From Candidatus Omnitrophota bacterium (GTDB taxonomy: Bacteria; Omnitrophota; Gorgyraeia; Aquiviventales; Aquiviventaceae), in the NCBI GenBank assembly GCA_016198905.1, contig JACQHR010000032.1, positions 10,390 through 74,389 of the forward strand: DNA of 64,000 nucleotides, in the 5' to 3' direction. A program made the translations under genes and the position numbers. Positions 1 through 28,240 of this stretch are shown in pieces (position 1 is the stretch's first letter; each line of letters begins with the position of its first letter). The notes under the pieces were generated by a model. That model had not been told where the DNA came from, did not search any database, and worked only from the letters and a program-made list of their open reading frames with translations.

Positions 1-2560
1 CCGAGACGGCGACCGGTGGCGACGCCAGTGCCGTGGCCAACGATGACAGCCTCGCGGTGGACGACTCCGGCAACGGCTCGTTCAACTCGGCTAGCTCGGA
101 CAGCTCCGACAGTTCCGACAACAGCAACAGCTCGGACAACTCCAACAGTAGCAGCACCGATCAAGCCAATGCTGGCGATGACAGCGCCTCAGCGAACAAC
201 GGCTCGCTCGCGGTCGAGGACTCCGGCAACGGCAACGACCTCAGCAGCGACACCGAGCTGACGGATTCAGCTAACGCCGACAACTCCGATAACAGCGACA
301 ACTCGGACCACTCCAACAACAGCAGCACCGAGACCGAGACGGCGACCGGTGGCGACGCCAGTGCCGTGGCCAACGATGACAGCCTCGCGGTGGACGACTC
401 CGGCAACGGCTCCTTCAACTCGGCTAGCTCGGACAGCAGCAATAATTCCAACAGCAGCACGAACGATTCGAACAACGACAACAGCAGCGACAACAGCCAG
501 ACTGAGCAAGCCAATGGAGGCGAGGACAGCGCCAACGCCAACAACGGCAGTTTGGCCGTGGATGTGAACGACTCCGGCAACGACAGCTCGAACAACAGTG
601 ACAACAGCGACAACTCGGACCACTCCAACAACAGCAGCACCGAGACCGAGACGGCGACCGGTGGCGACGCCAGTGCCGTGGCCAACGATGACAGCCTCGC
701 GGTGTCCGACTCCGGCAACGGCTCCTTCAACTCCGACAACTCGGACCACTCCGACAACAGCAATACCGAGTCGGAGAGCGCGACTGGCGGCGAGGACAGC
801 GCGGCCGCCAACAACGGGTCGCTGGCAGTTGATGACTCCGGCAATGGTTCGTTCAACGAGTCGGAGAGCGCGACTGGCGGCGAGGACAGCGCTAACGCGA
901 ACAATGGCTCGCTGGCCGTGGATGTGAACGACTCTGGCAACGACAGCAGTGACAACTCCGATCACTCCGACAACAGCGTCAACGACAACTCGGACAACAG
1001 CGAAGCCGAAGTCGAGCACAGCGATGGGAGTGCTGCCGCCAACGGCGGCGGTGACGCCACCACCGACAACTCGGACCACTCCGACAACAGCAACACCGAG
1101 TCGGAGAGCGCGACTGGCGGCGAGGACAGCGCCAACGCGAACAACGGCAGTCTCGCGGTCGATGACTCCGGCAACGGGTCGTTCAACGATGACAACGACA
1201 CCGACAACTCAAACCAGAGTAACACGACCGATTCGAACAACGAGTCAGCCAACGGCGGCGAATCCAGCGCGAATGCCAACAATGGCAGTCTCGCGGTCGA
1301 TGACTCCGGCAACGGCTCCTTTAACTCGGACAGCAGCGAAGCCGAAGTCGAGAACGACAGTGACGGCAGCGCCGCAGCCAACAACGGCGGCATCGCCACG
1401 ACCGACAATTCAGACAACAGCACCGAGACCGAGTATGCGACTGGCGGCGATGACAGCGCCAACGCGAACAACGGCTCGCTGGCGATTGACGTCAACGACT
1501 CCGGCAACGACAGTAGTGACAACAGCGAAGCCGAAGTTGAAGGGAGCACCGGCAGCGCCGCATCCAATGGCGGTGATGCCACGACCGACAACTCGGACAA
1601 CAGCGACAGCAGCACCAACAACTCCGCGGACAACAAGGGCAATGCCGCCAACAACGGCTCCACGATTGTCGCGGACAACTCGGACAACAGCACCGACAAC
1701 AGCGACACCAACAGCGCGGACAACGCTGGTGCAGCGGCCAACGACGGCTCGCTGGCGGTTTCGGTGAGCGACTCGGGCAACAACAACGACCTGAGCTCTG
1801 CTGACAACAGCGGGGATGGGTCGGCCGCGAACAATGGCTCCACCGCTTATGGTGAGTCTGACGTCGATGGGAATGGCACTGCCGTCAACGGCACAGGCAA
1901 CACCGCCACGACCGACAACAGCACGGACAACAGCGACAACAACAGCGCCTCGGGTGAGGCCATTGTTGCGAACGACTACTCCGTCGTACTGTCCGCGCAG
2001 GACTCAGGCAACGACAACGATCTGAGTACGAACGACTCGTACAACGACAACTCGGACAACAGCGAAGCCGAGGTGAAGGACAGCACGGGCAGCGCCGCCG
2101 CGAACAACGGTGGGATCGCCTCTACGGACAACAGCACGAACGACTCCAACAACACCAACACCGACTCGTACAACACCGACAGCAGCACGGAGACCGAGTA
2201 CGCCACGGCCGGTGATGATGGAGCGGCGGCCAACAACGGAGGCCTCGCCATCGAGGACTCCGGCAACGACAACGACCTCAGCTCGCAATCCGCTGGGGAC
2301 GGGGCTGCGGCGAACAACCACTCCACTGCGCAAGGTGAAGCTGACGCCGAGGGTGGCAGTGCCGCGGCGCACGGCGGATCCACGGCGTACGTGAACAACT
2401 CCGACAACTCGGACAACAGCGACCACAGCGACCACAGCAAAGCAAAGGCTGAGGGCGCTAGCGCTGCTGCCAACGGCAGTGGCATCGCGTCGGTCGATAA
2501 CAGCGATCACTCCGACAACAGCGTGAACAACACCGCTGACGGCAAGGGGATCGTTGCCAA
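1..2560 (+). repeat. In-frame degenerate tandem repeat array inside the acidic protein gene
   Basis: The block ccgagacggcgaccggtggcgacgccagtgccgtggccaacgatgacagcctcgcggtg occurs at 1, 334 and 646, giving periods of 333 and 312 bp. About 130 bp around 289-425 is nearly identical to 601-712. Shorter gacaac/agc/tcg units recur along the whole gene. Confidence 0.85.
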
Positions 2561-2795
2561 CGACAACGCTGCAGTCTACGCAATCAATGACTCACAGCTC
2601 GACTTCAGCGACCACAGCGTGACCGAGACCTACACGATCCAGAACAACAACCCGACCGGTTTCTCGATCGGGGTTGGGGACAGCGCCTTCAACAACGTCC
2701 GTGGGATCGTGGGCGTCAACCAGGGTGTCAGCTCAGCCATTCGCTCCGAGGTCAACGTGAGCGTTGGCACCGTCAACACTGGGAGCCAACCCTAA
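1..2795 (+). CDS. Extremely acidic Asp/Ser/Asn/Gly-rich repeat protein (5' end outside window) with a Fap-amyloid-like C-terminal repeat
   Basis: The frame of ORF 33..2795 stays open to position 3: codons 3-32 read ETATGGDASAV, the same unit seen internally. The protein has almost no K, R or aromatic residues. It is built from degenerate units such as GG(D/E)DSANANNGSLAVDDSGNGSFN and DNSDNSDHS tracts. The last ~60 aa switch to GDSAFNNVRGIVGVNQGVSSAIRSEVNVSVGTVNTG. A hairpin terminator follows the gene. Confidence 0.8.
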   Translation, partial: ETATGGDASAVANDDSLAVDDSGNGSFNSASSDSSDSSDNSNSSDNSNSSSTDQANAGDDSASANNGSLAVEDSGNGNDLSSDTELTDSANADNSDNSDNSDHSNNSSTETETATGGDASAVANDDSLAVDDSGNGSFNSASSDSSNNSNSSTNDSNNDNSSDNSQTEQANGGEDSANANNGSLAVDVNDSGNDSSNNSDNSDNSDHSNNSSTETETATGGDASAVANDDSLAVSDSGNGSFNSDNSDHSDNSNTESESATGGEDSAAANNGSLAVDDSGNGSFNESESATGGEDSANANNGSLAVDVNDSGNDSSDNSDHSDNSVNDNSDNSEAEVEHSDGSAAANGGGDATTDNSDHSDNSNTESESATGGEDSANANNGSLAVDDSGNGSFNDDNDTDNSNQSNTTDSNNESANGGESSANANNGSLAVDDSGNGSFNSDSSEAEVENDSDGSAAANNGGIATTDNSDNSTETEYATGGDDSANANNGSLAIDVNDSGNDSSDNSEAEVEGSTGSAASNGGDATTDNSDNSDSSTNNSADNKGNAANNGSTIVADNSDNSTDNSDTNSADNAGAAANDGSLAVSVSDSGNNNDLSSADNSGDGSAANNGSTAYGESDVDGNGTAVNGTGNTATTDNSTDNSDNNSASGEAIVANDYSVVLSAQDSGNDNDLSTNDSYNDNSDNSEAEVKDSTGSAAANNGGIASTDNSTNDSNNTNTDSYNTDSSTETEYATAGDDGAAANNGGLAIEDSGNDNDLSSQSAGDGAAANNHSTAQGEADAEGGSAAAHGGSTAYVNNSDNSDNSDHSDHSKAKAEGASAAANGSGIASVDNSDHSDNSVNNTADGKGIVANDNAAVYAINDSQLDFSDHSVTETYTIQNNNPTGFSIGVGDSAFNNVRGIVGVNQGVSSAIRSEVNVSVGTVNTGSQP

Positions 2796-2809
2796 GTCAT
2801 AGGTACGGT

Positions 2810-2849
2810 CTGGCGGGGGAGGGGCCACCCTCCTCCGCCAGGATTTTTT
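2810..2849 (+). terminator. Rho-independent terminator/attenuator between the repeat-protein gene and the peptidase gene
   Basis: GC-rich hairpin ctggcgggggagggg/ccctcctccgccag (2810-2841) followed by a T6 run (2844-2849). It lies 15 nt after the stop codon and 14 nt before the next ATG. Confidence 0.6.
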
Positions 2850-2862
2850 CAAAGAAGGACGG

Positions 2863-3561
2863 ATGATGCGACAGAGCCTGGCAGGACTGATCGGAGTATG
2901 GCTGATGGCACAGGGCGCTGTGCAGGCAGCGGATCTTTCGTTTCGTCCGGCACAAGGCCTCCTGCGCGTTCACACTTCCGTTGAAAGTTTGCAGGAACGG
3001 CGCTGGAAACACATCGTCAAGCAAGGCATTGATATCAGCTGTGGCTCAGCCACACTAGCCACCATTCTGCAGTACCAATTTGGCGAGCAGGTTGATGAGA
3101 GCGCGCTCATTCGCACGATCCTCAACAACGTGAAACCTGAGGACGTGCGCCAGCGCGGCGGGTTTTCGTTGTTAGATCTCAAACGCGCAGCAACCGGTCT
3201 CGGCTATAGCGTGCAAGGCTACAAGCTCCCCCTAGAGGCGTTAGCGAAGATGGGCGCTCCGGCCATTGTGGCGCTGACGGTTCGTGGCCGAAAGCACTTT
3301 GTCGTGTTTCGCGGCATGGTCGGCGATCGCGTCGTGCTGGCGGATCCCGCCTTCGGCAACATCCTGTTGAAGGAGGACGATTTTCAGGCGTTCTGGCAAG
3401 GAGTAGCGCTCGTGCTCAAGAAGGACGGGAAGGAGCGCGCGCCGTCACTGTTGTCGATTCGCCAAGATGATCTCACGACGATGCAAATCCAGGAATCCGT
3501 GCACTCGAAGCTCGGGCGGGAGGCCGTCGTCTACTCCGTGATGGGCGCCGATGAATTCTAA
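2863..3561 (+). CDS. Periplasmic C39-family cysteine peptidase-like protein (FapD-like)
   Basis: Signal peptide MMRQSLAGLIGVWLMAQGAVQA. Catalytic-type Cys in GIDISCGSATLATILQY. His/Asp region RKHFVVFRGMVGDRVVLADP. Size 232 aa. Confidence 0.75.
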   Translation: MMRQSLAGLIGVWLMAQGAVQAADLSFRPAQGLLRVHTSVESLQERRWKHIVKQGIDISCGSATLATILQYQFGEQVDESALIRTILNNVKPEDVRQRGGFSLLDLKRAATGLGYSVQGYKLPLEALAKMGAPAIVALTVRGRKHFVVFRGMVGDRVVLADPAFGNILLKEDDFQAFWQGVALVLKKDGKERAPSLLSIRQDDLTTMQIQESVHSKLGREAVVYSVMGADEF

Positions 3562-4786
3562 CGGGCGCGGGCAACTGATCTTTGCCGTGGCGGTGGGCGC
3601 GGTCGTGGCCCTCATGGGGCAACTGCCCATGCAACGAAAACTGCAGAACCTGGAACAAGAGGTCTCGCAGCTGCGCCAGCAAATCGCCCAGCAATCGATC
3701 GCGGCGCACGAGATACCGGTGCGCATGGCGGGGTTTTTTAATACGGCGGATGGATCGCTTCCATCCTTATCTTCTCCATCTTCTCCGCTACGCGTGGCCC
3801 AGGCGACCCCTGCATCCTATGAGGATGGGGCCCAGGTAATGAGCGAACGCGAGCTCGATGCGATCTTTGCAGGCGCGGGCGTCGTCGGACCAGGACCCGC
3901 CGCATCAGCTGCGGCGGCCGCGGCGCTGGCCTCCGGTGAAACGGAAGGAGCCGCGACGCGTCTCATTCCCCGGGTAGACCGTGGCGGCGTCTTGTTGCCC
4001 AAAGGTCGCCTGCAGGTGGAGCCCACGATCTCCTACAGCCACCTGTCAAGCAACCGTGTGGGACTGTCAGGATTTTCCGTCTTCGACGTCATCTTTATCG
4101 GTGAAATCCGTTCGGATGAGATCAATCGCGACATTGTCACCTCATCGGTGAATACGCGCTACGGAGTGACCAACAATCTTGAAGTCGAGCTCGATGTCCC
4201 GACCCAGTTTCAGTACGAAGAAGTCCTCAGCGGACCCATCGAAAATCGCGAACAGAGCATCCAAAGCCGCGGCGGCCTCAACGATATCAGCGCGGCCATG
4301 TTCTATCAGTTTGTGCGCGAGCACGGGGCGATGCCCAGCCTGATCGCGAATATGAAGCTCAGAGCCCCGACGGGGCAGGCCCCGAAGCTCGGGTCGGGGA
4401 CGTGGGGCGTGAAGGGCGGCTTGACGATGGTCAAGACGTCCGATCCCGTCGCCCTCTTCTCAAACGTGGGCTACTCCTTGAATCTTCCCGGGACGGTGAA
4501 CGGCCTGTCCATCGATCCTGGAGACTCGTTCGAATACAGCGCGGGCTTGGCGTACGCGCTCAACTATCATCTCGCGGTCAACGGCGGCTTTGAGCAGATT
4601 TTTATCGGCGAATCCAAATCCGGCGGAGGCTCCATCAAAGGCAGTCGCTTGGTGATTTCCAACCTCAAGGCCGGCATCAACTACGCGCTGACGAAGAACC
4701 TCAGCCTCGATTTCTCTGTCGGGGCAGGGCTCACCGAAGATTCTCCTGACGTGACCGTGACGTTCAGTCTCCCCTACACGTTTTAG
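3551..4786 (+). CDS. Outer-membrane beta-barrel protein with N-terminal coiled coil (FapF-like architecture)
   Basis: Overlaps the upstream gene by 11 nt. Hydrophobic N-terminus, heptad segment LQNLEQEVSQLRQQIAQQ, and a Pro/Ala/Ser linker. The C-terminal ~270 aa show an alternating amphipathic pattern and end LPYTF, a C-terminal Phe typical of OMPs. Confidence 0.65.
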   Translation: MNSNGRGQLIFAVAVGAVVALMGQLPMQRKLQNLEQEVSQLRQQIAQQSIAAHEIPVRMAGFFNTADGSLPSLSSPSSPLRVAQATPASYEDGAQVMSERELDAIFAGAGVVGPGPAASAAAAAALASGETEGAATRLIPRVDRGGVLLPKGRLQVEPTISYSHLSSNRVGLSGFSVFDVIFIGEIRSDEINRDIVTSSVNTRYGVTNNLEVELDVPTQFQYEEVLSGPIENREQSIQSRGGLNDISAAMFYQFVREHGAMPSLIANMKLRAPTGQAPKLGSGTWGVKGGLTMVKTSDPVALFSNVGYSLNLPGTVNGLSIDPGDSFEYSAGLAYALNYHLAVNGGFEQIFIGESKSGGGSIKGSRLVISNLKAGINYALTKNLSLDFSVGAGLTEDSPDVTVTFSLPYTF

Positions 4787-4947: not shown

Positions 4948-7497
4948 GTGACAGCGATGATCGATCCGAAAACCATCAGCGGCCTCTCTGTCCAGGAGGC
5001 GGCCAGTCGACTGGCCGTCGAGGGCTATAACGAATTGCCCTCGAAGAGTCGTCACACGCTGCTGGCGCTCGCCGTGGATGTGCTTCGGGAGCCCATGATC
5101 CTGCTCCTCGTGGCGTGCGGAGCGATCTACCTGGTGCTCGGGGATACGCGAGAGGCGCTCCTGCTCGTCGGTTCCATTGGCGTCATCATCGGGATCAGCC
5201 TGTATCAGGGGAGCAAGACCGAGCGCGCCCTCGAAGCCCTCCATGATCTTTCCAGCCCACGGGCGTTGGTCATCCGGGACGGCCAGCAGCGGCGTATTCC
5301 TGGACGCGAGGTCGTCCGGGGCGACAGCATCGTGCTCGCCGAGGGCGACCGGGTCCCGGCGGACGGTGTCGTGCGCTCATGCTCGCATCTGGCCGTCGAT
5401 GAGTCGCTCCTGACGGGTGAGTCGATGCCGGTTGGCAAGCGCGTGTCATCCGATGGACGCGCGATGGAGCGCCCCGGCGGGGGCGACGACCAACCCTGCG
5501 TGTATGCCGGCACGCTCGTCGTGCAAGGACAGGCCATCGCGGAAGTCCTTGCCATCGGCCTGCAGACAGAGATGGGTACCATCGGCAAGGCGCTGCAGAC
5601 GATCGAGCCGGAAGACACGCGCGTGCAGCGCGAAGTGGGACGCGTGGTGCGCGTGTTTGCCTTCGTCGGCATTTCGCTGTGCGTGTTCGTGGCGATTGTG
5701 TACGGCATCACGCATCAGGATTGGCTGCACGGCTTGCTCGCAGGATTGACGCTGGCCATCTCCATGATCCCTGAGGAGCTGCCCGTCGTGCTCACCGTTT
5801 TTCTGGCGCTCGGCGCATGGCGCATTTCTCGACGAGGCGTCCTGACGCGCCGCGTGCCCGCGGTGGAAATGCTCGGCGCGGCTACGGTGCTGTGCGCGGA
5901 TAAGACGGGTACGCTGACCCTCAACCGCATGACGGTTCAACGCCTCTACGCGCAAGGGCACTGGTGCACGATCGCTTCTGAGGACGAGGGGCCATTGCCC
6001 GAGCACTGCCATGAGCTGGCGGAGCTGAGCATTTTGGCCAGCCATCGCGACCCCTTTGATCCGACCGAACAGGCGCTGCAACGGCTGGGGTCTCGCGTGC
6101 ATCCGGAACATTTACAAGAAGGATGGACTATCGTGCGCGAGTACCCGATGTCGCGGGAGCTGTTGGCGATGTCGCACGTGCGTCGCTCGCCCGATGGACG
6201 CACGCACGTGGTCGCGGCGAAGGGAGCACCCGAGGCGATCGCGGAGATCTGCCGTTTTAGCTCGAGCCAGACGCAAACTCTGGCGGAGACGGTGACCACG
6301 ATGGCACGCGACGGCCTGCGCGTGTTGGGCGTCGCGAAATCCGAAGTGCTCGATGGCGTCATTCCGGATGCGCAACGCGAGTTTACCTTCCAATTTGTCG
6401 GGTTGGTGGGATTGGTCGACCCGGTGCGTCCTGCGGTGCCGGATGCGATCAAGGAATGTCAGACGGCAGGCATCCGCGTCGTCATGATGACCGGCGACTA
6501 TCCGGCCACGGCCCAGCACATCGCGTCGCATATCGGGCTGAGTCCTGTCAGCGACGTCATCAGCGGCAAAGGCTTGGATGCGATGGACGAGGCGACCCTG
6601 CGAAACCGCATCCGCAGCACCAACCTGTTCGCGCGCATCGTGCCGGAGCAGAAGTTGCGGTTGGTCAACGCGTTCAAGGCCAACGGAGAGGTCGTGGCGA
6701 TGACGGGCGATGGCGTCAACGATGCGCCGGCCCTGAAAGCGGCGCATATCGGAATTGCCATGGGCGCGCGCGGGACGGACGTGGCGCGCGAAGCCGCAGC
6801 ACTCGTGCTCTTGGACGATGACTTCTCCTCGATCGTCCACGCGATTCGGTTGGGCCGGCGCGTCTTCGATAACCTCAAGAAAGCGATGGCCTACATCTTC
6901 GCGGTGCACGTCCCGATCGCAGGCTTGGCCCTCATCCCCGTGCTCTTTCACTGGCCGCTCATTCTCCTGCCCGTGCACATCGTGTTTCTCGAGTTGATCA
7001 TCGATCCGGTCTGCTCGATCGTGTTTGAAGCCGAGCCGGCGGAAGCGAACGTGATGACCCGTCCGCCACGCCATCCGCAGGAACCGCTCTTTGGGGCGCG
7101 CACGGTGATCCTGAGCCTGCTGCAGGGGATGAGCGTGCTGCTCATCGTGCTTGCCGTGTTTGTGGTGGCGCGGGCGCGAGGCCACACCGAGGGAGAGGCG
7201 CGCGCCCTCACCTTTACCACGCTCATCATCGCGAACCTGGCACTCATCTTGACGAACCGGTCGTGGTCTCGCAGCATCCTGAGCACGCTGCGCGAGCCCA
7301 ATGCCGCATTGTGGTGGGTCATGGCCGGCGCACTGACCGTCCTCGCGCTCGTCCTGTCTGTGCCGTGGCTGCGGGAGTTATTCCGTTTTGCCGCGTTGCA
7401 CATGGACGATCTGATCGTCTGCCTGGTGGCCGGGACCGTCAGCATCCTCTGGTTTGAAGGCTTGAAAGTGCTTTCCGCTCATCGAAATTCCAGTTGA
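4948..7497 (+). CDS. P-type cation-transporting ATPase (P2-type, Ca2+/Mg2+-like)
   Basis: Motifs LTGES, CADKTGTLT (phosphorylation site) and MTGDGVNDAPALK. About 10 TM segments, 849 aa. The start may be GTG 4948 or ATG 4957. Confidence 0.9.
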   Translation: MTAMIDPKTISGLSVQEAASRLAVEGYNELPSKSRHTLLALAVDVLREPMILLLVACGAIYLVLGDTREALLLVGSIGVIIGISLYQGSKTERALEALHDLSSPRALVIRDGQQRRIPGREVVRGDSIVLAEGDRVPADGVVRSCSHLAVDESLLTGESMPVGKRVSSDGRAMERPGGGDDQPCVYAGTLVVQGQAIAEVLAIGLQTEMGTIGKALQTIEPEDTRVQREVGRVVRVFAFVGISLCVFVAIVYGITHQDWLHGLLAGLTLAISMIPEELPVVLTVFLALGAWRISRRGVLTRRVPAVEMLGAATVLCADKTGTLTLNRMTVQRLYAQGHWCTIASEDEGPLPEHCHELAELSILASHRDPFDPTEQALQRLGSRVHPEHLQEGWTIVREYPMSRELLAMSHVRRSPDGRTHVVAAKGAPEAIAEICRFSSSQTQTLAETVTTMARDGLRVLGVAKSEVLDGVIPDAQREFTFQFVGLVGLVDPVRPAVPDAIKECQTAGIRVVMMTGDYPATAQHIASHIGLSPVSDVISGKGLDAMDEATLRNRIRSTNLFARIVPEQKLRLVNAFKANGEVVAMTGDGVNDAPALKAAHIGIAMGARGTDVAREAAALVLLDDDFSSIVHAIRLGRRVFDNLKKAMAYIFAVHVPIAGLALIPVLFHWPLILLPVHIVFLELIIDPVCSIVFEAEPAEANVMTRPPRHPQEPLFGARTVILSLLQGMSVLLIVLAVFVVARARGHTEGEARALTFTTLIIANLALILTNRSWSRSILSTLREPNAALWWVMAGALTVLALVLSVPWLRELFRFAALHMDDLIVCLVAGTVSILWFEGLKVLSAHRNSS

Positions 7498-7530: not shown

Positions 7531-8187
7531 ATGACCCTTGAACCGTTTTTCCAGTCGATCTCCCTGTTGAAGCGATTGAGCGCGTCGGAACGCCAGCGAC
7601 TCGCCGAGGTCTCCCGGGAAAAGCGTTACGCCAAAGGCGAAGCCGTGTTTCGCCAAGGCGATCCGGCTGAAGCCGTGTGCATCGTGAAGGAGGGTCGCGT
7701 CCATCTCATGAAGTTTCATGACGAAGGACAGGCTTCCACCACGTGCGTGATGACGCCGGGAGAAATCTTCTGCTGTCTGCCCGCGCTGGATCGCAAGCCC
7801 TATCCGGTCGATGCGATTGCGGCCGTCGATTCCATCATCGTGCGCATTCCCACGACGTCTTTTCATGAGCTGCTCCAGAAAAATCCCGCATTTCTCGAAG
7901 CGTCGTTATGCCTGTTCTGCGAACGGCTGCGCCAAGTCGAGAACCAAAGCTGCATGGTCTATGATTCGGTGGAGCGCCGACTGGCGCAGGTGCTGCTGAC
8001 CTTGTCCGAGAAATTTGGCCCTACGATTCCGCTCACCAAGCACGAGCTCGCCGAGATGGCCAACACCACCGTTGAGACCACCATCCGCATCCTCAGCCAT
8101 CTGAAGAAGCAAGGTGCGATCAAGTCTTCGAGAGGCTCGACGACCATCGTCAAGCCCGACATGCTGCGCGACCTCGCAAGTTCGTAA
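7531..8187 (+). CDS. Crp/Fnr-family transcriptional regulator (no N-terminal Cys cluster)
   Basis: cNMP-binding-like barrel (GEAVFRQGDPAEAVCIVKEGRV) plus a C-terminal HTH (LTKHELAEMANTTVETTIRILSHLKKQG). Confidence 0.85.
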   Translation: MTLEPFFQSISLLKRLSASERQRLAEVSREKRYAKGEAVFRQGDPAEAVCIVKEGRVHLMKFHDEGQASTTCVMTPGEIFCCLPALDRKPYPVDAIAAVDSIIVRIPTTSFHELLQKNPAFLEASLCLFCERLRQVENQSCMVYDSVERRLAQVLLTLSEKFGPTIPLTKHELAEMANTTVETTIRILSHLKKQGAIKSSRGSTTIVKPDMLRDLASS

Positions 8188-8395
8188 GGCGTCTCTGCAG
8201 GCTACGCGTTCATCTTAAGGGCGGACGCCCAGGCATGAAACCGCATCAGGCCCCTCCGCAAGATTCTATGATGCACCTCATAGACGTGCGCCATCCGAAG
8301 CATAAGCTAAAAGCCAGGATACGTGTGGCGCGCAGCTCGCGCGCTAGTGGGCCATAAGGGGCTGCCTGGCGCGGGGCTCACGACGGGAGGCTGCG

Positions 8396-8857
8396 ATGGC
8401 ACTCATCAAGTGGAGCGGGCAAAACGTGTGGGAACCGTTTCGGGAACTGGGGCAGTTGCAAGAAGAGATCAATCGGGTCTTCGGCAGATCGCTCGCGCCG
8501 GTGGAGTGGTTACCAAAGAACGGCGGGGAATGGGTGCCGAAAGTGGATATCGTGGAGGAGAAAGATCGCATCCTAGTGCGCACAGATTTGCCTGGAATGA
8601 AGCAAGAAGACATCAGCGTCGAAGTGGAAGGCGACCTGCTCACCATGACAGGCGAACGCAAGCACGAGTATGAAAAGAAGGAAGGACAAGCCTTTCGTAT
8701 TGAACGCAGCTACGGGACGTTCATGAGGAGTTTTACGCTTCCCTCGACGGTGGATGCCACCAAGGTCAACGCGGCATACAAAAACGGCGTGCTCGAAATT
8801 TCGCTGCCAAAACGAGAAGGGACGAAGGCGAAGCATATCACCGTCGACGTCAAGTAA
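8396..8857 (+). CDS. Hsp20/alpha-crystallin small heat-shock protein
   Basis: 153 aa with alpha-crystallin domain features: VDIVEEKDRILVRTDLPGMKQEDISVEVEGDLLTMTGER...FTLPSTVD...AYKNGVLEISLPK. Confidence 0.9.
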   Translation: MALIKWSGQNVWEPFRELGQLQEEINRVFGRSLAPVEWLPKNGGEWVPKVDIVEEKDRILVRTDLPGMKQEDISVEVEGDLLTMTGERKHEYEKKEGQAFRIERSYGTFMRSFTLPSTVDATKVNAAYKNGVLEISLPKREGTKAKHITVDVK

Positions 8858-8920
8858 ATCGCGCCGGAGAGCGGGGAGTCTCCGGGGCGGCGTGGCATGC
8901 GGTCATTGGGAGGATGCGCC

Positions 8921-9241
8921 ATGGTGACAGAGACGAACCGGTTAGCAACGGATGTCCGGTGGGAACCTCCGAACAGGATCAGTGCGCCGAGGTCGTTAAT
9001 GACTCAGATTGGAGTCCTCGAGGGCGAGGTGTTGGCGTTTCTCGATGAGCACGGCAGTACGTCGATGCGTCGGCTCACGCGGGAACTCGACGGACCGTCC
9101 CCACTGATCATGATGGCCATTGGTGCGCTCGTGCGGCAGGGGTTGATCCGCGTAGTCCAGCACGATCTGGAGGTCATCTTCGAGCCGATCGAGACGATGT
9201 CGCAAGCGACTGAGCCAATCCCCGAAGTGTGGGGCGGCTGA
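8921..9241 (+). CDS. Small winged-helix-like protein, function unknown
   Basis: The ATG at 8921 is preceded by ggagga. Segment VLAFLDEHGSTSMRRLTRELDGPSPLIMMAIGALVRQGLIRV resembles a wHTH fold. The ORF track starts earlier, at 8897. Confidence 0.45.
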   Translation: MVTETNRLATDVRWEPPNRISAPRSLMTQIGVLEGEVLAFLDEHGSTSMRRLTRELDGPSPLIMMAIGALVRQGLIRVVQHDLEVIFEPIETMSQATEPIPEVWGG

Positions 9242-9600
9242 CGCGGGAGGCGCGTATGACGCGCCGGCAGTTTTGGATGGCCTGGGGATCCGGATGTCTC
9301 GCCGCGCTGGCGGGGAGCGGGGCCGTGCGGATGAGCATCGGAGTCCCGGTGCTCGTCGGGTACCAGGCAATACCGTGGTGGATGAGCTGGGTGGTGATGG
9401 TCGTCTCCGGAGCGTTATCTTGGAGGCTGGCACGGAAAGCGGGGAAAGCCAAAACCGAAGCATGGATGAGCGTGTGCGAGGTGTGCGATGGGGAAAATGA
9501 TGCCGAGCCAGCAGCCATGCGAGAGCAAGAAAGCATCGGTGAACCGAGCTGTGTCTGCGTCGACGTCTGCGAGGTGGGTCAAGAAGACGAGGACGAGTAG
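9229..9600 (+). CDS. Hypothetical membrane protein with an acidic Cys-containing tail
   Basis: Two hydrophobic segments, then a C-terminus CEVCDGENDAEP...SCVCVDVCEVGQEDEDE. The start is uncertain (alternative Met at 9256). Confidence 0.4.
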   Translation: MGRLTREARMTRRQFWMAWGSGCLAALAGSGAVRMSIGVPVLVGYQAIPWWMSWVVMVVSGALSWRLARKAGKAKTEAWMSVCEVCDGENDAEPAAMREQESIGEPSCVCVDVCEVGQEDEDE

Positions 9601-9734
9601 CGCCCACCAAGAAGGCACGCTGTGGAAGCGCAAGATGCGTAGCCTCGCGACGCGGCTGCCAAAAGGGAAGAGCAAGCGGGAACGGTCTCGCGCCCCGATG
9701 AAACGAGGATGAGGCCAAACGGCAGGAGGCCACG

Positions 9735-10190
9735 ATGGACGTTCGCGAGTTGATGACCCCTGATCCAGTAGCGTGTCTGCCGACGGAGAGTTGTGCGGCG
9801 GCCGGTGACATCATGCGGCGGCGCAACTGCGGTTTTGTTCCCATCGTGGAATCGCAGAGTACCAAGCGCATCATCGGCGTGGTCACGGACCGGGACCTGT
9901 TGTTGCACCTCACGGCGGTGGATCGCGCGCCGAGCCACGTGCCGGTGGAAGCCTGCATGACGAGGGCGGTGGAGTTCGTGGCTCCCAACGCAGGTCTCGA
10001 AGATGCCGCGCGCATTATGGAGCGGGCGGCGATCCATCGGCTGCCGGTCGTGGAAGACGGGCGTCTGGTCGGCATTCTCTCGTTGAAGGACATTGCGTTG
10101 GCAGCGAGAAAGCAGTGGGCGTATGCCGGCCCACACGTGGCCGAGCGGCAAATGACGGAGATTGTCGAAGCCATTGCGGCCGCGCGTTGA
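9735..10190 (+). CDS. CBS-domain pair protein
   Basis: Two CBS-like units (VRELMTPDPVAC...GVVTDRDLLLHL and ACMTRAVEFV...LVGILSLKDIA). An aggagg RBS precedes the ATG. Confidence 0.85.
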   Translation: MDVRELMTPDPVACLPTESCAAAGDIMRRRNCGFVPIVESQSTKRIIGVVTDRDLLLHLTAVDRAPSHVPVEACMTRAVEFVAPNAGLEDAARIMERAAIHRLPVVEDGRLVGILSLKDIALAARKQWAYAGPHVAERQMTEIVEAIAAAR

Positions 10191-10394
10191 GCGTCTCACG
10201 CAGTGGGGGGAGCTGATACGACAACAGGGCAGCCACAGTAACGGACAGCGCACGTCACGGATACGGAGGTGACCCAATGAGGGGCATTTCCAAGAAAGGG
10301 GCAGGTCGCGTGGCGATGAAGTGATGCGCAGGATGGGAAGGCCTACCTACGCTGCTGCATTGAGGAGTAAGATGGTCACGGGTGCCGGGAAGAC

Positions 10395-10997
10395 ATGTTA
10401 CGATTCAGACGCGCAATCCTCTTCATGGTCTGCGGGTTGGTTGTCCTCGCCGGGTGCGCAAGGTTCGAGAGGCGCGAGCGCCTCGCCATGCACAGTCAGG
10501 TCTTAACTGCGCCCAGTGACCGAGTGTGGGAGGCGGCCATTGCGGCAGCTGCGGAATTGGGGTATACGGTGTCCTCGGCGAATCAGACGCGCCGTGTGAT
10601 CGTCGCGTCTCGAGACTATCCGGAAGCCGCGTTTCGGGAGTATGTGGCGGATGCCATCGGGCGTTTGGAGCGACGGTGGTGGCGCCTTGAAGTGACGCTG
10701 ATTCTCTCGGTCACCGATGTGTCCCCCCAGCACACGCGCGTTGCGATCGAGGGGCGTCTCATGGGGCGTGCGAGCCCTGCGTTGCCTGGCGTGCAGCGAT
10801 CTGGACTGACCATCGTGCCGCTTGAGTCCAATGGACGGTTGGAGCAGCAGTTCCTAGAGCGCATCGCGACCGATGTGCGTCGTCGAAACGCGGCGCACGG
10901 ATTAATGAGGCCCCCAGGAGGCGACGCAATAGCCAGACGTTCATCCCACATCCTCCCTGACGCAGGTCATAGAACTTTACCGGCGGTCAAGGCATAG
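10395..10997 (+). CDS. Hypothetical lipoprotein
   Basis: Signal peptide with lipobox LVVLAGC. No recognisable catalytic motif. Confidence 0.5.
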   Translation: MLRFRRAILFMVCGLVVLAGCARFERRERLAMHSQVLTAPSDRVWEAAIAAAAELGYTVSSANQTRRVIVASRDYPEAAFREYVADAIGRLERRWWRLEVTLILSVTDVSPQHTRVAIEGRLMGRASPALPGVQRSGLTIVPLESNGRLEQQFLERIATDVRRRNAAHGLMRPPGGDAIARRSSHILPDAGHRTLPAVKA

Positions 10998-11112
10998 TTG
11001 TGATTGAGAGAAGGAAGTGGCAGGCGCGGGAAACTGAATCCAGCCCTGGCAAGTGCTTCCGGATCTCACCAGGGAAAGGAGGATGTTGGATGGCCCTGGA
11101 GGTTGGTTAGAC

Positions 11113-11167
11113 CCCTGGATTCACCGAGTACGCGCACGAGGCACGACGGTGGATCCAGGGTGTTTTT
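11113..11167 (+). terminator. Long hairpin plus T-run (terminator of the lipoprotein gene, or an attenuator upstream of the VIT1 gene)
   Basis: Arms ccctggattcacc (11113-11125) and ggtggatccaggg (11148-11160) pair at 12 of 13 positions. The hairpin is followed by tgtttttatt. Confidence 0.35.
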
Positions 11168-11390
11168 ATTGCTGTAATCTTCGAGAGACTGCTCCGCCTA
11201 GCAGGGCGCGAAACTTATGGGTCGCGGCGATCAAGGCTTTTGAGAGATTGGTTTCGGTAAGAATGCCGGCGAGGCCGTGGGAGGCGCAGGGATGGGCTCT
11301 AGCAAAACCCATAACAAGGAAGTCGTCAGCGTGTGCTACAATCGTGACGTTGTGATGGACAGCTGATTACGTGAAGGGACGAGGAGCGCC

Positions 11391-12146
11391 ATGAGTCTTG
11401 TTGAACAGCGCCGGCGGGAACACCACGGCGTCTCAGAAGCTGTCCGCAACCGGCTGCGCGAAGCCGTGTTCGGCACCCAAGATGGACTCATCTCGACGCT
11501 GGGCGCCCTGACGGGCATTGCCGCCGGCACGCAGAATGCCGAGGCGGTCGTGGTCGCCGGATTTGTCATTATCGCGGTGGAATCGCTGTCGATGGCCGCG
11601 GGGTCCTACTTATCGTCCAAATCGCAGCGCGAATACTTGGAGCGACTCCTGCGTGAGGAAGAGGCGGAAATCGCCAATGACCCTGAAGGCGAACGGCAGG
11701 AGATCTGGGAGATGTACAAGACGCGCGGTTACACCGATGAGGAAACCGCAATCATCGCCAAGCGACTCATGAGCGATCCCAAGCTCTTGCTAGAGGACAT
11801 GGCCCATAAGGAACTCGGCATCCTGCCGGGGTCGCTGGAAGAGCCGCTGGGGAATGCGCTTGTCATGGGGACGACGTACGTGATCGGCGGACTCATTCCC
11901 GTGTTGCCGTATCTGTTCTTGCCGATGTGGACCGCGATGCCGATTTCAATTATCGGCACGCTGCTGGCTCTCTTTCTCTTCGGAGGACTCAAGGGACGTG
12001 TGGTCAAGCAGGTGTGGTGGCGCAGCGGTCTTGAGATGCTCTTCATTGCCGGAGTGGCGGCACTCGTCGGATTCCTCATCGGCCGCGCAGCCGATCTGTG
12101 GATTACCCATCATCTTCCAGGAACGACGCCCTCCCTCACGTTCTAG
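11391..12146 (+). CDS. VIT1/CCC1-family Fe/Mn transporter
   Basis: Motif AVFGTQDGLISTLGALTGIAAG, a cytoplasmic acidic helix region (EEEAEIANDPEGERQEIWEMY) and a C-terminal TM bundle. 251 aa. Confidence 0.8.
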   Translation: MSLVEQRRREHHGVSEAVRNRLREAVFGTQDGLISTLGALTGIAAGTQNAEAVVVAGFVIIAVESLSMAAGSYLSSKSQREYLERLLREEEAEIANDPEGERQEIWEMYKTRGYTDEETAIIAKRLMSDPKLLLEDMAHKELGILPGSLEEPLGNALVMGTTYVIGGLIPVLPYLFLPMWTAMPISIIGTLLALFLFGGLKGRVVKQVWWRSGLEMLFIAGVAALVGFLIGRAADLWITHHLPGTTPSLTF

Positions 12147-12235
12147 CTGACGCGCACGTTCGTCGGCTCTTTGCTCGTCGTGGCAGTCTGATCTCCGTCA
12201 TAGACGTCGTTTCATGCCTTACGTATCGTAGGGGG

Positions 12236-12946
12236 ATGAACGAGATGCAGACCCTTCAGGAGTTGCCTCTGCTGCAGCATCTCTCGACGAAGCGGCGACA
12301 AGAGATCCTCGCGGCAGGATTGCTGGAACACTACGAGAAAGGCGCCGCGCTCTTTCATCAAGGGGAAGACGCCGCAGCGATTTGGCTCATCCTCAAAGGG
12401 TGGGTACATCTGGTGCGCGCCTCGACGCAGGCCGAAGACGGTGTCGTCATTTTTACCGTGACGCCGGATGAAATACTGTGCGGAGTGTCGGCGATTACGG
12501 CAGACCGGTACAATGTGAGCGCGGTCGCAGGGACGGCGTGCACGACATTTCGGATTCCTGCGGACATCTTTGACGACGCACTCCGTCATGAACCTACAGC
12601 TGCGTACGACGTCGCACAGCTCTGCATCCGGCGCATGCAGCACATCGCGCAGCAGTACGGGGCCATGGCCGAGCCGGTCGCCTCACGGATCGTCCGGACG
12701 ATTCTGCGCTTACGCACGCAATTCGGCAGCACGCTGCCTGTGACGCATCGAGAGCTGGCACAGATGTCGTGGACGACAACGGAAAGTGCGATCCGCTCAG
12801 TCCGGAAACTCAAACACGACGGGTACCTCACAGGTACGCGTGGGTTACTGACCGTTCGAAACGCCAACGCGTTGGCGCGCCTCGTCCATGAAAGCAACGG
12901 TCACGGCGGGCTCACTCCCGTGCTGCACGCATGTCATCGAGGGTAG
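12236..12946 (+). CDS. Crp/Fnr-family transcriptional regulator (second copy, no Fe-S Cys cluster)
   Basis: The ATG at 12236 follows a gtaggggg RBS; the ORF track's 12098 start overlaps the VIT1 gene. cNMP-like domain plus HTH (VTHRELAQMSWTTTESAIRSVRKLKHDG). Confidence 0.8.
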   Translation: MNEMQTLQELPLLQHLSTKRRQEILAAGLLEHYEKGAALFHQGEDAAAIWLILKGWVHLVRASTQAEDGVVIFTVTPDEILCGVSAITADRYNVSAVAGTACTTFRIPADIFDDALRHEPTAAYDVAQLCIRRMQHIAQQYGAMAEPVASRIVRTILRLRTQFGSTLPVTHRELAQMSWTTTESAIRSVRKLKHDGYLTGTRGLLTVRNANALARLVHESNGHGGLTPVLHACHRG

Positions 12947-23395: not shown

Positions 23396-24604
23396 TTGAC
23401 GCGGATGCAAAGAGTTGCTATTGTGCGAGATGCCTGCATGATTGGACAACAAGTGTGTGACACGCAAAGCAGCGCTGTGATTTCTCTGGTTCACCCTTCC
23501 CATCCCCGCCGCGTAACGATTCAACCGCATCTGCTTCTTGTGGGTGTCAACTATCGGACGGCTCCCGTTGAGCTTCGCGAACGGCTGGCGATTCCTTCCC
23601 GCGACCTTCCCGAGGCCCTTCGCACCCTTCGAGCGATCCCCGGCGTTGATGAAGCCGTGATCCTCTCCACGTGCAACCGAATCGAATGCTACGTCGTGAC
23701 TGCACAGCCCGACTCCGTGTTCTCACAGCTGGTAGAGTTCCTCGCTTATCGCAGTCGCGTGCCTGCCACGATCGTGCAATCCGCCTCCTATCACTTCACG
23801 GACAACGAGGTGATGACGCACGTCTGCCGCGTCGCGGCGGGCTTGGATTCCATGGTCCTCGGAGAGTGCGAGGTGACGGCGCAGGTCAAGCAGGCGTATC
23901 TGCTCGCGCACGCCCACCACGCGACCGGGCCGGTGCTGAATCGCCTCTTCCAAAAAACTCTCCACACGACGAAGCAGCTTCGGTGCAACACGACCATTGC
24001 GCAGGGCCGCACTTCCATCGGATCGATCGTGGCCGCACTGGCGGCACAGCCGTTCGACAATCGATTGGATGCGTGCGAAGCGCTGCTGTGGGGCGCAGGC
24101 AAGGCGGCCGAAGCGACGGCAAAGCATCTCATCAAAGGGGGCATTCGGCAGCTCTGGATCGTGAACCGGACGCAAACCAAGGCGCAAGACCTGGCCCTCC
24201 TGTGCGAGGGCGGATGGCTCTCGTGGGAGCAGGCGTTGAAACATCTGGCGCACGTCGATATCGTCATCGTGTGCACGCAAGCGCCGCATTATGTGATTGA
24301 CCGTCACGACGTGGAGGCCATCCGAGCCGCGCGTGGCGGACGGCCGCTGTGCATCGTGGACTTGGCGGTTCCGCGCAACGTCGATCCCGTCCTGAAAGAT
24401 GTGGCGGGGGTCTTTCTCTACAACGTCGACGATCTCCAGGCGATGGCCTGCGCGGGGCAGACGCAGCGCCAACGCACCCTCGCATTGTGCGATGAGCTCA
24501 TCGCGCGGCAAGCGACGCTCTTCATGGCATGGTGGCAGGCAACGATGGCAACTACGAAGGAGGGCGCAGGATGTCAGCTCGACCAGTCGCGCGCATCGGT
24601 GTAG
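23396..24604 (+). CDS. hemA: Glutamyl-tRNA reductase
   Basis: LLLVGVNYRTAPVELRERLA, catalytic-Cys motif LSTCNRIECY, and NADPH-binding LLWGAGKAAEATAKHL. The start is uncertain (23396 or 23438). Confidence 0.9.
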   Translation: MTRMQRVAIVRDACMIGQQVCDTQSSAVISLVHPSHPRRVTIQPHLLLVGVNYRTAPVELRERLAIPSRDLPEALRTLRAIPGVDEAVILSTCNRIECYVVTAQPDSVFSQLVEFLAYRSRVPATIVQSASYHFTDNEVMTHVCRVAAGLDSMVLGECEVTAQVKQAYLLAHAHHATGPVLNRLFQKTLHTTKQLRCNTTIAQGRTSIGSIVAALAAQPFDNRLDACEALLWGAGKAAEATAKHLIKGGIRQLWIVNRTQTKAQDLALLCEGGWLSWEQALKHLAHVDIVIVCTQAPHYVIDRHDVEAIRAARGGRPLCIVDLAVPRNVDPVLKDVAGVFLYNVDDLQAMACAGQTQRQRTLALCDELIARQATLFMAWWQATMATTKEGAGCQLDQSRASV

Positions 24605-24963
24605 GCCTCGCAGGGATCGTGTGGCTCGCCACACCCGCGTGGGCGACGATCGATAACTTCAAGAGTTACAAAGCGGCCTATCCAGGCAAAGACGCCAAAG
24701 CCTACTCGTGCAAGGTCTGCCATCAACACCCCGTTGGACGTGCGGGCGATCTCAATGCGTACGGGAAGGCGTTGCAGCAGTCGAAGGCGCAGATCGGCGC
24801 CAAGAAGCTGACGGTCGAGGACTATCGTGCGAGTGAGAAGGGTGACGCCGACAGTGACGGCGCCTCGAACGTCGAGGAGATCAACGCAGGAACGTCTCCG
24901 AGCGATCCGGCATCCGTTCCAAAAGGGATTCATACTCCGCACGCTGCAGGCAAGGCCAAGTAA
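24571..24963 (+). CDS. Secreted monoheme cytochrome c with a thrombospondin-type-3-like acidic Ca-binding repeat
   Basis: RBS gaaggaggg precedes ATG 24571, which overlaps the hemA 3' end by 34 nt. Signal peptide ...ATPAWA. One CKVCH motif. DADSDGASNVEEINAGTSPSDPASVP repeat. Confidence 0.75.
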   Translation: MSARPVARIGVGLAGIVWLATPAWATIDNFKSYKAAYPGKDAKAYSCKVCHQHPVGRAGDLNAYGKALQQSKAQIGAKKLTVEDYRASEKGDADSDGASNVEEINAGTSPSDPASVPKGIHTPHAAGKAK

Positions 24964-25032
24964 ATGAGCGAGCAAGAGCGACGGAAAAAGACTGGGGCAG
25001 GGAAGGCGCAACGCGAGGAGGGGAGACAGTGC

Positions 25033-26259
25033 ATGCGGAGAGCATGGATCGGCATGGGGGTGGTGAGCGTGGTGTTGGCTGGCGTGAGCGACGCGTGGGC
25101 GATCCCGGCCTTCGCGCGCAAGTACGGGGTTTCCTGCAACGTGTGCCATCGGCCGAACGTGCCGCGGCTGAACGACTATGGCCATCGGTTTCGGAAGCTT
25201 GGCTATCGCGTACCTGAAGAGGTGGGGCAACAGCCGGAATACAAGGAGATTGGCAACTTTATTTCCATGCGCGGCCGGATGCGCTATGACTACGAGGACT
25301 TCGAGCGAGGGCGCAACACCAGCGGTTTTAGGTGGAACGATGCGACGCTGTTCTACGCCGGTTCCGTGACGAAAAACCTGTCCTCCTTTTTCGAGTGGGA
25401 ATGGGAGGATGAAAACGAGATCGGGTTGAACGGACAATTCTCATGGTTGTTTGGTGGACCGGACCGCTACGCCCAGATCCGCTTGGGACAGATGCACACC
25501 CTGTCGCGTGTGGGGTGGGCCGGGTTTGATCGACCTTCCGGCATCTCCACGACCGACGTGATCGGCAGTACGCTGACGACGACTGCGGTGCCGTTTACGC
25601 TCGCGAAGGACCAGCGTGGGCTGGAGCTTGCCGTTGGACTCAATCCGGACATTCGGCTGATCGGCCAGATCTTAAATGGGCTCGATACGAGTGGGAGCGG
25701 GACGACCGGCACGCGGGATAATGATACCAGCAAGGACGTGCTGCTCGCCTACGAGCACATGTTAGGCAAGCACGGCTCCGGCGTGACCGGGGTCTTCTAT
25801 CGGGGGACATGGCACCAAGCGGCTGGCACGGTCGTGAGCGGCACCGCCTTACCGGACGATAATGCGTTCACGAAATTTAATTTTTACCGCTACGGCCTCA
25901 CCGGAAGTTTCGTGTTTGATACGCCCTTCTGGTCGGGTCACGAGAGCGAGTTCAACGGCGGAGCGATCTTCGCCCATGATCAGGGCCCCAGCGCGTATCC
26001 AGGCGGAAAACCCAACGCCGACGGACAGGCCTATTTCTTGGGAGTGGAACAGTACTTGCAGGACGCCTCGGTGTTCAGCCGGTTCGACTTCCGCAATATC
26101 GAAGTGAGCGGCGAGGACAATTGGCGTCGGAAGTACACCGTCGGAACGGCCAAGCAGGTCAACGACTACCTGCGGCTGGCTCTCGAAGGCTTCGTGAAGG
26201 ACCAGGAGTCCGCTAACGACAGCTTCGGGGCGCAGGTGGAGGCGATGTTCAATTTCTAG
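25033..26259 (+). CDS. Cyc2-like fused monoheme cytochrome-porin (outer membrane)
   Basis: Signal peptide ...VSDAWA, then immediately IPAFARKYGVSCNVCH (single CXXCH). About 360 aa of alternating beta-strand-like sequence follow, ending EAMFNF (terminal Phe). 408 aa. Confidence 0.7.
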   Translation: MRRAWIGMGVVSVVLAGVSDAWAIPAFARKYGVSCNVCHRPNVPRLNDYGHRFRKLGYRVPEEVGQQPEYKEIGNFISMRGRMRYDYEDFERGRNTSGFRWNDATLFYAGSVTKNLSSFFEWEWEDENEIGLNGQFSWLFGGPDRYAQIRLGQMHTLSRVGWAGFDRPSGISTTDVIGSTLTTTAVPFTLAKDQRGLELAVGLNPDIRLIGQILNGLDTSGSGTTGTRDNDTSKDVLLAYEHMLGKHGSGVTGVFYRGTWHQAAGTVVSGTALPDDNAFTKFNFYRYGLTGSFVFDTPFWSGHESEFNGGAIFAHDQGPSAYPGGKPNADGQAYFLGVEQYLQDASVFSRFDFRNIEVSGEDNWRRKYTVGTAKQVNDYLRLALEGFVKDQESANDSFGAQVEAMFNF

Positions 26260-28227: not shown

Positions 28228-28240
28228 AAGGAGGCCCTTG

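Follow-up and report, generated by a model that had tools for sequence, protein, structure and literature searches.

The closest described relatives of the genes treated here are those of the Pseudomonas fapABCDEF operon, in which FapD is a periplasmic C39 peptidase that is catalytically required and whose substrate is unknown, and in which FapF exports unfolded substrates (PMC5557850). The Fap proteins carry no canonical double-glycine leader, and Rouse et al. suspected processing near GG/GA motifs in the FapF linker region (PMC5557850). Gln-rich coiled coils are a hallmark of FapF homologues (PMC6173795), and co-localised fapD/fapF homologues were reported by Rouse et al. from five further phyla (PMC6173800). 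In Neisseria, according to a 2025 paper, a C39 peptidase and a FapF-like channel flank peptides with a GG motif (PMC11798529). Stand-alone FapD/FapF-type pairs, one of them with a GG-peptide cargo (the Neisseria nap genes), are already published. Here, we describe a stretch of 64,000 nucleotides (nt) from a Candidatus Omnitrophota bacterium (assembly GCA_016198905.1, contig JACQHR010000032.1, positions 10,390 to 74,389 of the forward strand), in the following called the window. It begins with three plus-strand genes: the 3' part of a gene for a giant anionic low-complexity repeat protein (3..2795), a gene for a FapD-like periplasmic C39 cysteine peptidase (2863..3561), and a gene for a FapF-type outer-membrane channel (3551..4786). 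We consider it rather probable that an Omnitrophota lineage has a conserved surface-polymer module of four genes, of which this segment contains the last three. The module would consist, in this order, of a small subunit, the giant protein, the peptidase, and the channel, and would work as proposed below.

The peptidase of 232 aa is matched by the Pfam model Peptidase_C39 (PF03412) with 78 bits at a cut-off of 22. It has a Sec-type N-terminus with a signal peptide at aa 1-22 (MMRQSLAGLIGVWLMAQGAVQA/AD, where the slash, here and in the sequences below, marks a predicted or conceivable point of cleavage, except in AG/GG, where it stands for 'or'). The catalytic set is intact, with a spacing of 6 residues between Q54 and C60 (nt 3040-3042) and of 16 residues between H145 (nt 3295-3297) and D161, whereby Cys and His align with those of FapD. 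The top NCBIfam model is FapD (135.1 bits, E 2e-39), and pairwise alignment to FapD of Pseudomonas entomophila yielded 34% identity (E 2e-35). The peptidase gene overlaps the channel gene by 11 nt, with no fapE between them. For the channel of 411 aa, an alignment of 36 homologues (A1) was used for AlphaFold2 modeling as well as for profile searches. The model (overall predicted local distance difference test score, pLDDT, 76.5) follows an N-terminal signal or anchor helix with a coiled-coil helix at aa 25-52 (nt 3623-3706; a clean Gln-rich heptad, LQNLEQEVSQLRQQIAQQ), a disordered linker at aa 54-143, and a barrel at aa 154-411 (nt 4010-4783) that mostly exceeds a pLDDT of 90 and ends in LPYTF. 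Among all PDB sequences the A1 profile found only FapF (E 1.8e-65). Foldseek likewise placed the FapF entries 5o65, 5o67, and 5o68 on top (E 3e-21, TM score 0.77-0.81), followed by the COG4313 channel 4rl8 (E 3e-13), with autotransporter, FadL, and porin barrels far behind. Profile and predicted fold thus both assign the channel a 12-strand outer-membrane barrel of the FapF fold. Its top NCBIfam model is FapF (125.4 bits, E 2.5e-36), its identity to P. entomophila FapF is 26% across the full length (E 5e-42, pairwise), and its best Pfam match is Phenol_MetA_deg (PF13557, 65 bits). The closest database protein is 100% identical and comes from a Candidatus Omnitrophica/Omnitrophota metagenome-assembled genome, and some 30 relatives share 46-76% identity.

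A preliminary description of this DNA, made from the letters alone, had recognized a C39-type peptidase with intact Cys and His and a 411-aa outer-membrane protein with heptad coiled coil, flexible linker, and an LPYTF-ending barrel, and had read them as a FapD-like/FapF-like pair; all of this is borne out. For the plug helix that it expected, the model gives no confident helix, with none at 144-153. FapD and FapF are indeed the best families with significant E values, but both scores lie far under the equivalog cut-offs (135.1 versus at least 330 bits and 125.4 versus at least 700 bits), which sets the window pair apart from Pseudomonas fapABCDEF. Acinetobacter Fil (FilB/FilC, a putative pilus) shares the two-gene core, as do the fapD/fapF homologues of other phyla (PMC6173800). 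FilB reaches nearly the FapD score on the peptidase (125 bits, again below its cut-off), while FilC matches the channel weakly with 37 bits. As judged from sequence profiles and the model, the export pair is FapD/FapF-type by descent and architecture, not by equivalog status. Scores under the cut-offs, together with the lack of a FapA, FapB, FapC, or FapE gene, characterize it as a Fap-related export pair and not as a fap operon. The idea of a divergent two-gene export module thus stands as far as the pair is concerned, but such pairs had been published before (PMC6173800; PMC11798529).

Upstream of the pair, frame 3 is open from base 3 up to a stop at 2793-2795 and encodes 930 visible residues of the giant protein. 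The gene continues past the left window edge, beyond which its 5' end and the expected signal peptide are located. The composition is dominated by S (20%), N (17%), D (14%), A (13%), and G (10%), with K+R = 7, F+Y = 18, and no W, C, or M at all; with D+E = 176, the visible part has a net charge of about -169. With an iterated hidden Markov model (HMM), some 20 core units were delineated that follow the pattern (A)TGG[DE]DSAxANNGSLAVDDSGNG(SFN) and are separated by D/N/S/T/E linkers of the SDNSDNSDHS and SEAEVE type; 12 strict units score 36-51 bits. The strict 26-aa unit is confined to the window and one related lineage (locus L004). The final ~60 aa change in character (...NNNPTGFSIGVGDSAFNNVRGIVGVNQGVSSAIRSEVNVSVGTVNTGSQP). 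Thus, the protein of more than 920 aa, nearly free of K, R, and aromatic residues, with its GG(D/E) units, D-N-S tracts, and switch of sequence type at the end, is as it had initially been described. The giant contains no Pfam domain at E<=1 and no NCBIfam domain; in particular, there is no HemolysinCabind match (GGxGxDxUx) at this Pfam threshold that would suggest an RTX protein, and no ABC transporter or membrane fusion protein gene is adjacent. In terms of D/S/N tracts, negative charge, and scarcity of K/R and aromatic residues it resembles staphylococcal SD-repeat proteins and the DSS repeats of dentin phosphophoryn, but export route and organism are different; the likeness is one of composition, and homology is not expected. 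We also considered whether the GG of the repeats (..ESATGG/EDSA..) might constitute serial C39 sites of a polyprotein. This is unsupported, as the hydrophobic positions -4, -7, and -12 of a leader are missing, and the leader model introduced below has no match anywhere in the visible part of the giant.

Around channel homologues, the loci of seven relatives were read (L004, L084, L086, L088/89, L094, L095, and L096). In all seven, a giant low-complexity gene is located directly upstream of the genes for the C39 peptidase and the outer-membrane protein, which overlap by 11 nt in every relative examined, as in the window. Overall, the giant gene stands upstream of the pair in 8/8 related lineages. 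The encoded giants comprise 786-1559 aa with net charges of -78 to -313 and a D+E share of 10 to 22% among orthologues, and end with the same ~45-aa C-terminal unit; those with a visible N-terminus start with a Sec signal peptide, e.g., MAKIRLALALLLALGFSAPVWA/DDS in L004. Because the orthologues share frame, signal peptide start, and C-terminal unit, the giant gene has a genuine reading frame, which low sequence complexity does not merely simulate. The suggested tie of the repeat protein to the export pair is hereby supported, and so, in the orthologues with a visible N-terminus, is a secretion signal. In contrast, the view of a system pared down to two genes, without a small partner, has to be revised: in 6/6 loci that reach far enough, the giant gene is directly preceded by a small gene, whose product has 98-153 aa. 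As the small gene precedes the giant gene in the relatives, the module comprises four genes, not two genes plus one cargo. By analogy, the small-subunit gene of the window organism is expected just left of the window edge, and its product would be expected to have a signal peptide, LSDEELxxVxAG, and a core of the type ...GVFTTLQAVNSAVDL.V.VNI... No FapA-like gene was found in the relatives' modules read.

The small subunits were analyzed with a profile of the shared unit (A2), which retrieved 16 further small proteins. In 16/16 the layout is the same, with a signal peptide, a spacer, the leader LSDEELxEVSAG, and a ~60-aa core that is strongly conserved (...FDVxIxDNxAGxFTMDIAQSAFxGAQGVFTTLQAVNSAVDLTVIVNIYL). 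The classical double-glycine leader has the consensus LSxxELxxIxGG, which LSDEELxEVSAG/GG matches at each position. D40 and G49 are invariant; the predicted cleavage site can have either AG or GG, the latter in P0114, P0115, and one L014 protein. Two giants have such a leader after their signal peptide as well (YLSDAQLDSVVAG/DD in L096, a weaker one in L088), while the giants of L004, L084, L086, and L094 are without it. The C-terminal unit of the window giant (aa 878-930, 2634..2792, plus strand) is homologous to the core of the relatives' small subunit. An HMM built from four small subunits scored the C-termini of five giants with 21-31 bits, compared to a maximum of 12.3 bits for 5000 composition-matched shuffles, and in the six frames of the window the giant was the sole significant match (E 5e-4). 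Small core and giant tail align without gaps along the core, and nine of the columns are invariant. Together with the scores above those of the shuffles, this identifies the tail of the giant as a copy of the small-subunit core.

It had been suggested beforehand that the tail is a single amyloid-like repeat. An HMM of 155 FapB/FapC repeats matches the C-terminal unit once, over repeat positions 1-15 (DSAFNNVRGIVGVNQ), with 16.2 bits, where shuffles reach at most 9.5 bits, and hhalign relates the shared unit to the Fap repeats with 76% probability over 17 columns. Judged from these profiles, the likeness is real but short: the unit's AFxxxxGx[IV]GVNQ resembles the first half of the FapB/C repeat, and the three imperfect GVNxAAGxxNxQxN repeats of FapB and FapC are not found in the window cargo or its tail by NCBIfam, Pfam, or the repeat HMM. 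The match is thus limited to the initial ~15-17 positions of a Fap repeat, and the clear homologue of the tail is the small-subunit core. A relationship to the C-terminal domain of FapE, convincing by eye when the tail was compared to non-Pseudomonas FapE before the HMM test, was discarded, as the FapE HMM gave 2.4-7.1 bits and shuffles up to 12.1 bits; on the small subunit this HMM did no better than on shuffles. AlphaFold2 prediction of the last 200 aa of the giant with the small-subunit alignment gave no fold (pLDDT 47.7). Such a low value fits an unfolded export substrate and supports no structure.

A further element of the module was detected in the channel itself. Its linker contains a double-glycine-leader-like motif at aa 97-108 (3839..3874, plus strand; MSERELDAIFAG/AG), which is the single match of the leader regular expression in the six frames of the window (104,481 residues). 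The motif is kept in 27/27 outer-membrane proteins of the clade, where the surrounding linker is variable and unalignable, and is absent from nine remoter homologues. A position-specific scoring matrix (PSSM) of 16 small-subunit leaders ranked it first among 91,567 12-mers of the window, with 10.7 bits. It may serve as a site at which the channel is cleaved or at which the peptidase docks. Across all open reading frames (ORFs) of all loci (1.2 million residues) the leader expression matched 18 times, with 14 matches in Fap-type modules; these represent 11 distinct ones if the window locus, present in three copies, enters the count a single time. They are found in subunits of L004, L006, L011, L014, L016, and L021 and in the outer-membrane proteins of the window and L004. 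Leader-like motifs also occur in subunit genes of loci without FapE from Planctomycetia, Verrucomicrobiota, Nitrospinae, and Armatimonadota (L006, L011, L014, L016, and L021).

With these elements in hand, the module can be compared to the known systems. Like Pseudomonas fapABCDEF, it has a catalytically intact periplasmic C39 peptidase, a 12-strand barrel that follows a modeled Gln-rich coiled coil with a disordered stretch behind it, and a Sec-exported N/Q/S/G-rich cargo encoded upstream. Unlike there, FapA, FapB, FapC, and a FapE between D and F are missing (upstream lies beyond the window), the cargo is an anionic repeat protein of >930 aa plus, in the relatives, a ~60-aa mature subunit, and the subunits and the channel carry leaders of the near-canonical double-glycine type. 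The nap-type architecture, i.e., a C39 peptidase (NapP), a FapF-like channel (NapF), and small GG-motif proteins (NapA-C) in the absence of other fap genes (PMC11798529), is found in the relatives' loci, so that a stand-alone pair with small GG-motif proteins is common to both; NapP and NapF were compared by description. However, the Nap peptides are cationic, microcin-like, and promote autolysis, whereas the small subunit of the module is anionic, has a Sec signal, and recurs as the C-terminal unit of the giant. Leader consensus and peptidase family are also those of ABC exporters for class II bacteriocins and microcins, but in these the leader forms the extreme N-terminus of a cytoplasmic precursor and is cut by a cytoplasmic domain fused to the ABC transporter. 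In the module a Sec signal peptide precedes the leader, the peptidase is free and periplasmic, and there is no ABC transporter.

A scan with the A1 profile of one genome per species yielded 80 loci, and 77 FapF-like loci have a C39 gene nearby. The Pseudomonas loci show the classical order with a FapE of ~250 aa between D and F, and those of Thermodesulfobacteria, Halanaerobiales, and Guyparkeria resemble complete fap operons. A third class, with adjacent genes for C39 peptidase and outer-membrane protein, no FapE, and one or two NSGTA-rich, K/R-poor subunits upstream, comprises Planctomycetia, Omnitrophota, NC10, Verrucomicrobiota, Nitrospinae, Armatimonadota, and Agitococcus. The subunits of the fetched Planctomycetia, Verrucomicrobiota, NC10, Nitrospinae, and Agitococcus loci measure 100-480 aa and are not giants. 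In the papers searched we found no description of the cargo of fapD/fapF pairs from other phyla. As for the giants, a word-index protein search with the last 113 aa gave no match, and an exhaustive HMMER search with the tail in 1.84 billion representatives gave P0107 as the one true homologue, next to three repeat proteins that are spurious matches. Four JGI loci contain the family, a metagenome scan with the small-subunit profile gave no further lineage, and the Logan contigs that match the window proteins end within the giant gene. In L086 (6113-9223) and L087 (1-2205) the annotation cuts the giant gene into ~10 short minus-strand ORFs, although the plus strand contains an ORF of 989 aa that has a signal peptide and the conserved tail. 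Annotation errors of this kind and contigs that break within the repeats probably explain why protein databases hold few giants but do hold small subunits. L088 (4837-9228) and L089 (4549-9228) represent one species in two samples, with giants of 1463 and 1559 aa, respectively, a difference that reflects either repeat-number polymorphism or assembly collapse.

In the mechanism that we propose, Sec would bring both subunits, for which signal peptides are seen in the orthologues, into the periplasm. There, to judge from the motif and from what is known of the family, the C39 peptidase would strip the leader (LSDEELxxVxAG/GG) from the small pro-subunit and leave a ~60-aa core rich in N, Q, and V; in some lineages the giant has the same leader. 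The peptidase might furthermore dock on the channel or clip it via the linker motif and thereby gate it. By analogy to FapF, the subunits, which are K/R-poor, Cys-free, and predicted to be disordered, would then cross the 12-strand barrel in an unfolded state. Outside the cell, and here the support is less, the shared ~45-aa unit might drive co-assembly by beta-strands, so that small-subunit filaments or anchors would bear the long, strongly anionic, hydrated tails of the giants. Several points weigh against this reading. The family is known from sequence alone, the small-subunit gene and the N-terminus of the giant lie outside the window, and, since the family is rare, the conservation statistics depend on few lineages. 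Most giants have no leader, so the C39 peptidase may not touch the giant at all, and with no confident fold of the tail a cross-beta assembly has no structural support. The PSSM lead of the channel motif over the next 12-mer amounts to 0.9 bit (10.7 versus 9.8), and HMMER, run with a model of the small-subunit leaders, gives no hit to the motif in the window channel. With this model silent and the PSSM alone ranking it first, equivalence of the channel motif and the leaders is plausible, but not proven.

The shared C-terminal unit could also be a targeting signal instead of an assembly element. In this most serious alternative, which we nevertheless regard as unlikely, the ~45-aa unit would be a C-terminal targeting or secretion signal that is read by the channel or the peptidase; the giant would be a soluble or surface-retained polyanion, and the small protein a separate secreted peptide. 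The position of the unit at the extreme C-terminus of every giant would suit a signal, as would the lack of a predicted fold, and C-terminal signals are common in other outer-membrane export routes. The unit also makes up nearly the whole mature small protein. However, its alternation of hydrophobic with N/Q/S/T residues and its partial match to the Fap repeat are typical of stacking beta units, the small-subunit version closes with the very hydrophobic strand VIVNIYL, and Fap as well as the other FapE-less loci as a rule combine a major with a minor subunit. These features make us prefer co-assembly of the two subunits through the shared unit. A more far-reaching version of the latter appears improbable as a whole. 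Here, filaments of the ~60-aa subunit with a cross-beta structure would carry kilodalton-scale polyanionic tails like a bottle brush, export through the FapF-type pore would be free of ATP, and the partner peptidase would license this pore through a double-glycine leader within the linker of the channel itself. In a lineage that also encodes multihaem cytochromes, the brush of anionic tails would act as a cation sink or mineral template, and, as a corollary, the canonical FapD target would be the N-terminal segment ELxDQELAxLRG[RG] of FapE. A calcium- or metal-binding role with a link to cytochromes had already been proposed for the giant; it was drawn from composition, while no RTX or other metal-binding domain was detected with Pfam, the acidity is variable, and the gene neighbours are not conserved. 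We therefore treat metal binding and mineral templating by the giant as speculation.

It might also be that the small GG-leader protein is a bioactive peptide with a role as toxin, in autolysis, or in signaling, which is processed by the C39 peptidase and exported through the FapF-like pore in the manner of Nap peptides or microcins, and that the giant has an accessory role, for instance as decoy, immunity factor, or unrelated adhesin. The leader is of the classical bacteriocin type, Neisseria provides a precedent (PMC11798529), and the small subunits match the NCBIfam model 'CTB family bacteriocin', though weakly (17.8 bits, cut-off 32). Nonetheless this seems quite improbable to us. The mature peptides are anionic, devoid of K/R, and highly conserved, whereas bacteriocins evolve fast; no conserved immunity or regulator gene accompanies the relatives' modules, and a giant whose C-terminus is homologous to the peptide has no role in such a model. 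Finally, with Phenol_MetA_deg as best Pfam match and 4rl8 as second fold match, as given above, the channel could be taken for a COG4313/Phenol_MetA_deg uptake channel for hydrophobic compounds that stands next to the other genes by coincidence. This is very hard to reconcile with the data and would be our last choice: FapF is nearer in both sequence profile and fold, the window channel differs from the COG4313 type by its coiled coil, disordered linker, and overlapping C39 gene, the module is conserved across 8 lineages, and COG4313 channels have no reported C39 partners (PMC6173800).

The four-gene module bears on questions that concern Fap-type secretion in general. What FapD cuts, and which sequence it recognizes, has been an open question of the field since 2017 (PMC5557850, PMC6173800), and the leaders of the module offer concrete test peptides; candidate targets of FapD-type peptidases are the small-subunit leaders, the channel linker motif, and a weaker motif in nearly all FapE. 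In addition, the 12-strand FapF route may handle cargo of ~800-1560 residues, provided that it is unfolded and anionic, which would widen the range of this secretion type. For the anionic coat, cation binding, adhesion, and protection come into consideration as possible roles, among which the data do not choose. That groundwater Omnitrophota might wear a coat that binds cations or templates minerals is an attractive idea whose support is compositional. In the papers searched, we did not find described a giant anionic low-complexity cargo, a two-subunit design with a shared terminal unit, the arrangement of a double-glycine leader behind a Sec signal, or a conserved leader-like element in the channel.

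Leader-like segments were also noticed in other Fap proteins. The FapE-position proteins of the Pseudomonas fap operons (L026-L079, e.g., L026:9917..), and also those of L015, L074, and L077, have a segment (F)KPIEL[KNS]DQELAxLRG[RG][YF]V, which in nearly all of them is located just past the signal peptide. With a relaxed expression, 45/56 distinct FapE-position proteins match, at a background of 0.008 per 90 aa. A true GG is present in the non-Pseudomonas segments of L015 (VKETELEKLRGG/Y) and L074 (RLDDIRGG/F). Based on its sequence, this N-terminal segment of FapE may be a recognition site of FapD. The FapA-position proteins (L026:5793-6233 and equivalent Pseudomonas ORFs of ~145 aa) contain ELSDGDFAGISSG/SG near residue 72; each scores weakly against the leader model (E 4-50), yet the position is consistent. 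In the L004 channel (L004:9920-11365), the linker contains a tandem pair of leader-like motifs, the first at aa 129 (LLSDEELGQVVAG/S) and the second at aa 169 (LTAEELDAVVAG/AG).

Between the stop of the giant gene and the start of the peptidase gene, a consensus scan located a GC-rich hairpin with a 15-bp stem and a fold energy of -33.9 kcal/mol, followed by the T-run ATTTTTTCAA (2809..2842, plus strand). L004, L084, and L088 have a similar hairpin in the corresponding position, whereas L086 does not. From its sequence the element appears terminator- or attenuator-like; it could provide for high expression of the subunits and low expression of the machinery, or stabilize the subunit mRNA. Directly downstream of the channel gene lies a gene for a P-type ATPase (4948..7497), whose best NCBIfam models are PMR1/SERCA-type calcium pumps (504 bits, under the equivalog cut-off of 798 bits). 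A functional tie of the module to this adjacent ATPase was rejected, as the relatives carry unrelated genes there. The region 7531..12900 (L002 5618..12873) encodes two Crp/Fnr regulators, Hsp20, a CBS protein, a VIT1 iron/manganese transporter, a PAS-GGDEF protein, and a hemerythrin, which suggests metal or redox and cyclic di-GMP signaling with no evident link to the module; genes for Ca-type ATPase, VIT1, and GGDEF proteins are not conserved beside the module in the relatives read. At 24496..44192, 20-40 kb from the module, the window contains clustered genes for multihaem c-type cytochromes, each with 5-11 CXXCH motifs and one of them fused to a cytochrome b561-like domain. A 431-aa ORF at 24964..26256 with a single CXXCH at residue 58 has no Pfam or NCBIfam match; it could be the Cyc2-like protein that the preliminary description mentioned. 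In the relatives, PEP-CTERM-type proteins are encoded within a few kb of the module (L004:12194-13078, L090:1279-2196, and L088:3015-3923), the one of L088 also with ice-binding/adhesin-like domains, which hints at a shared surface or exopolymer neighbourhood.

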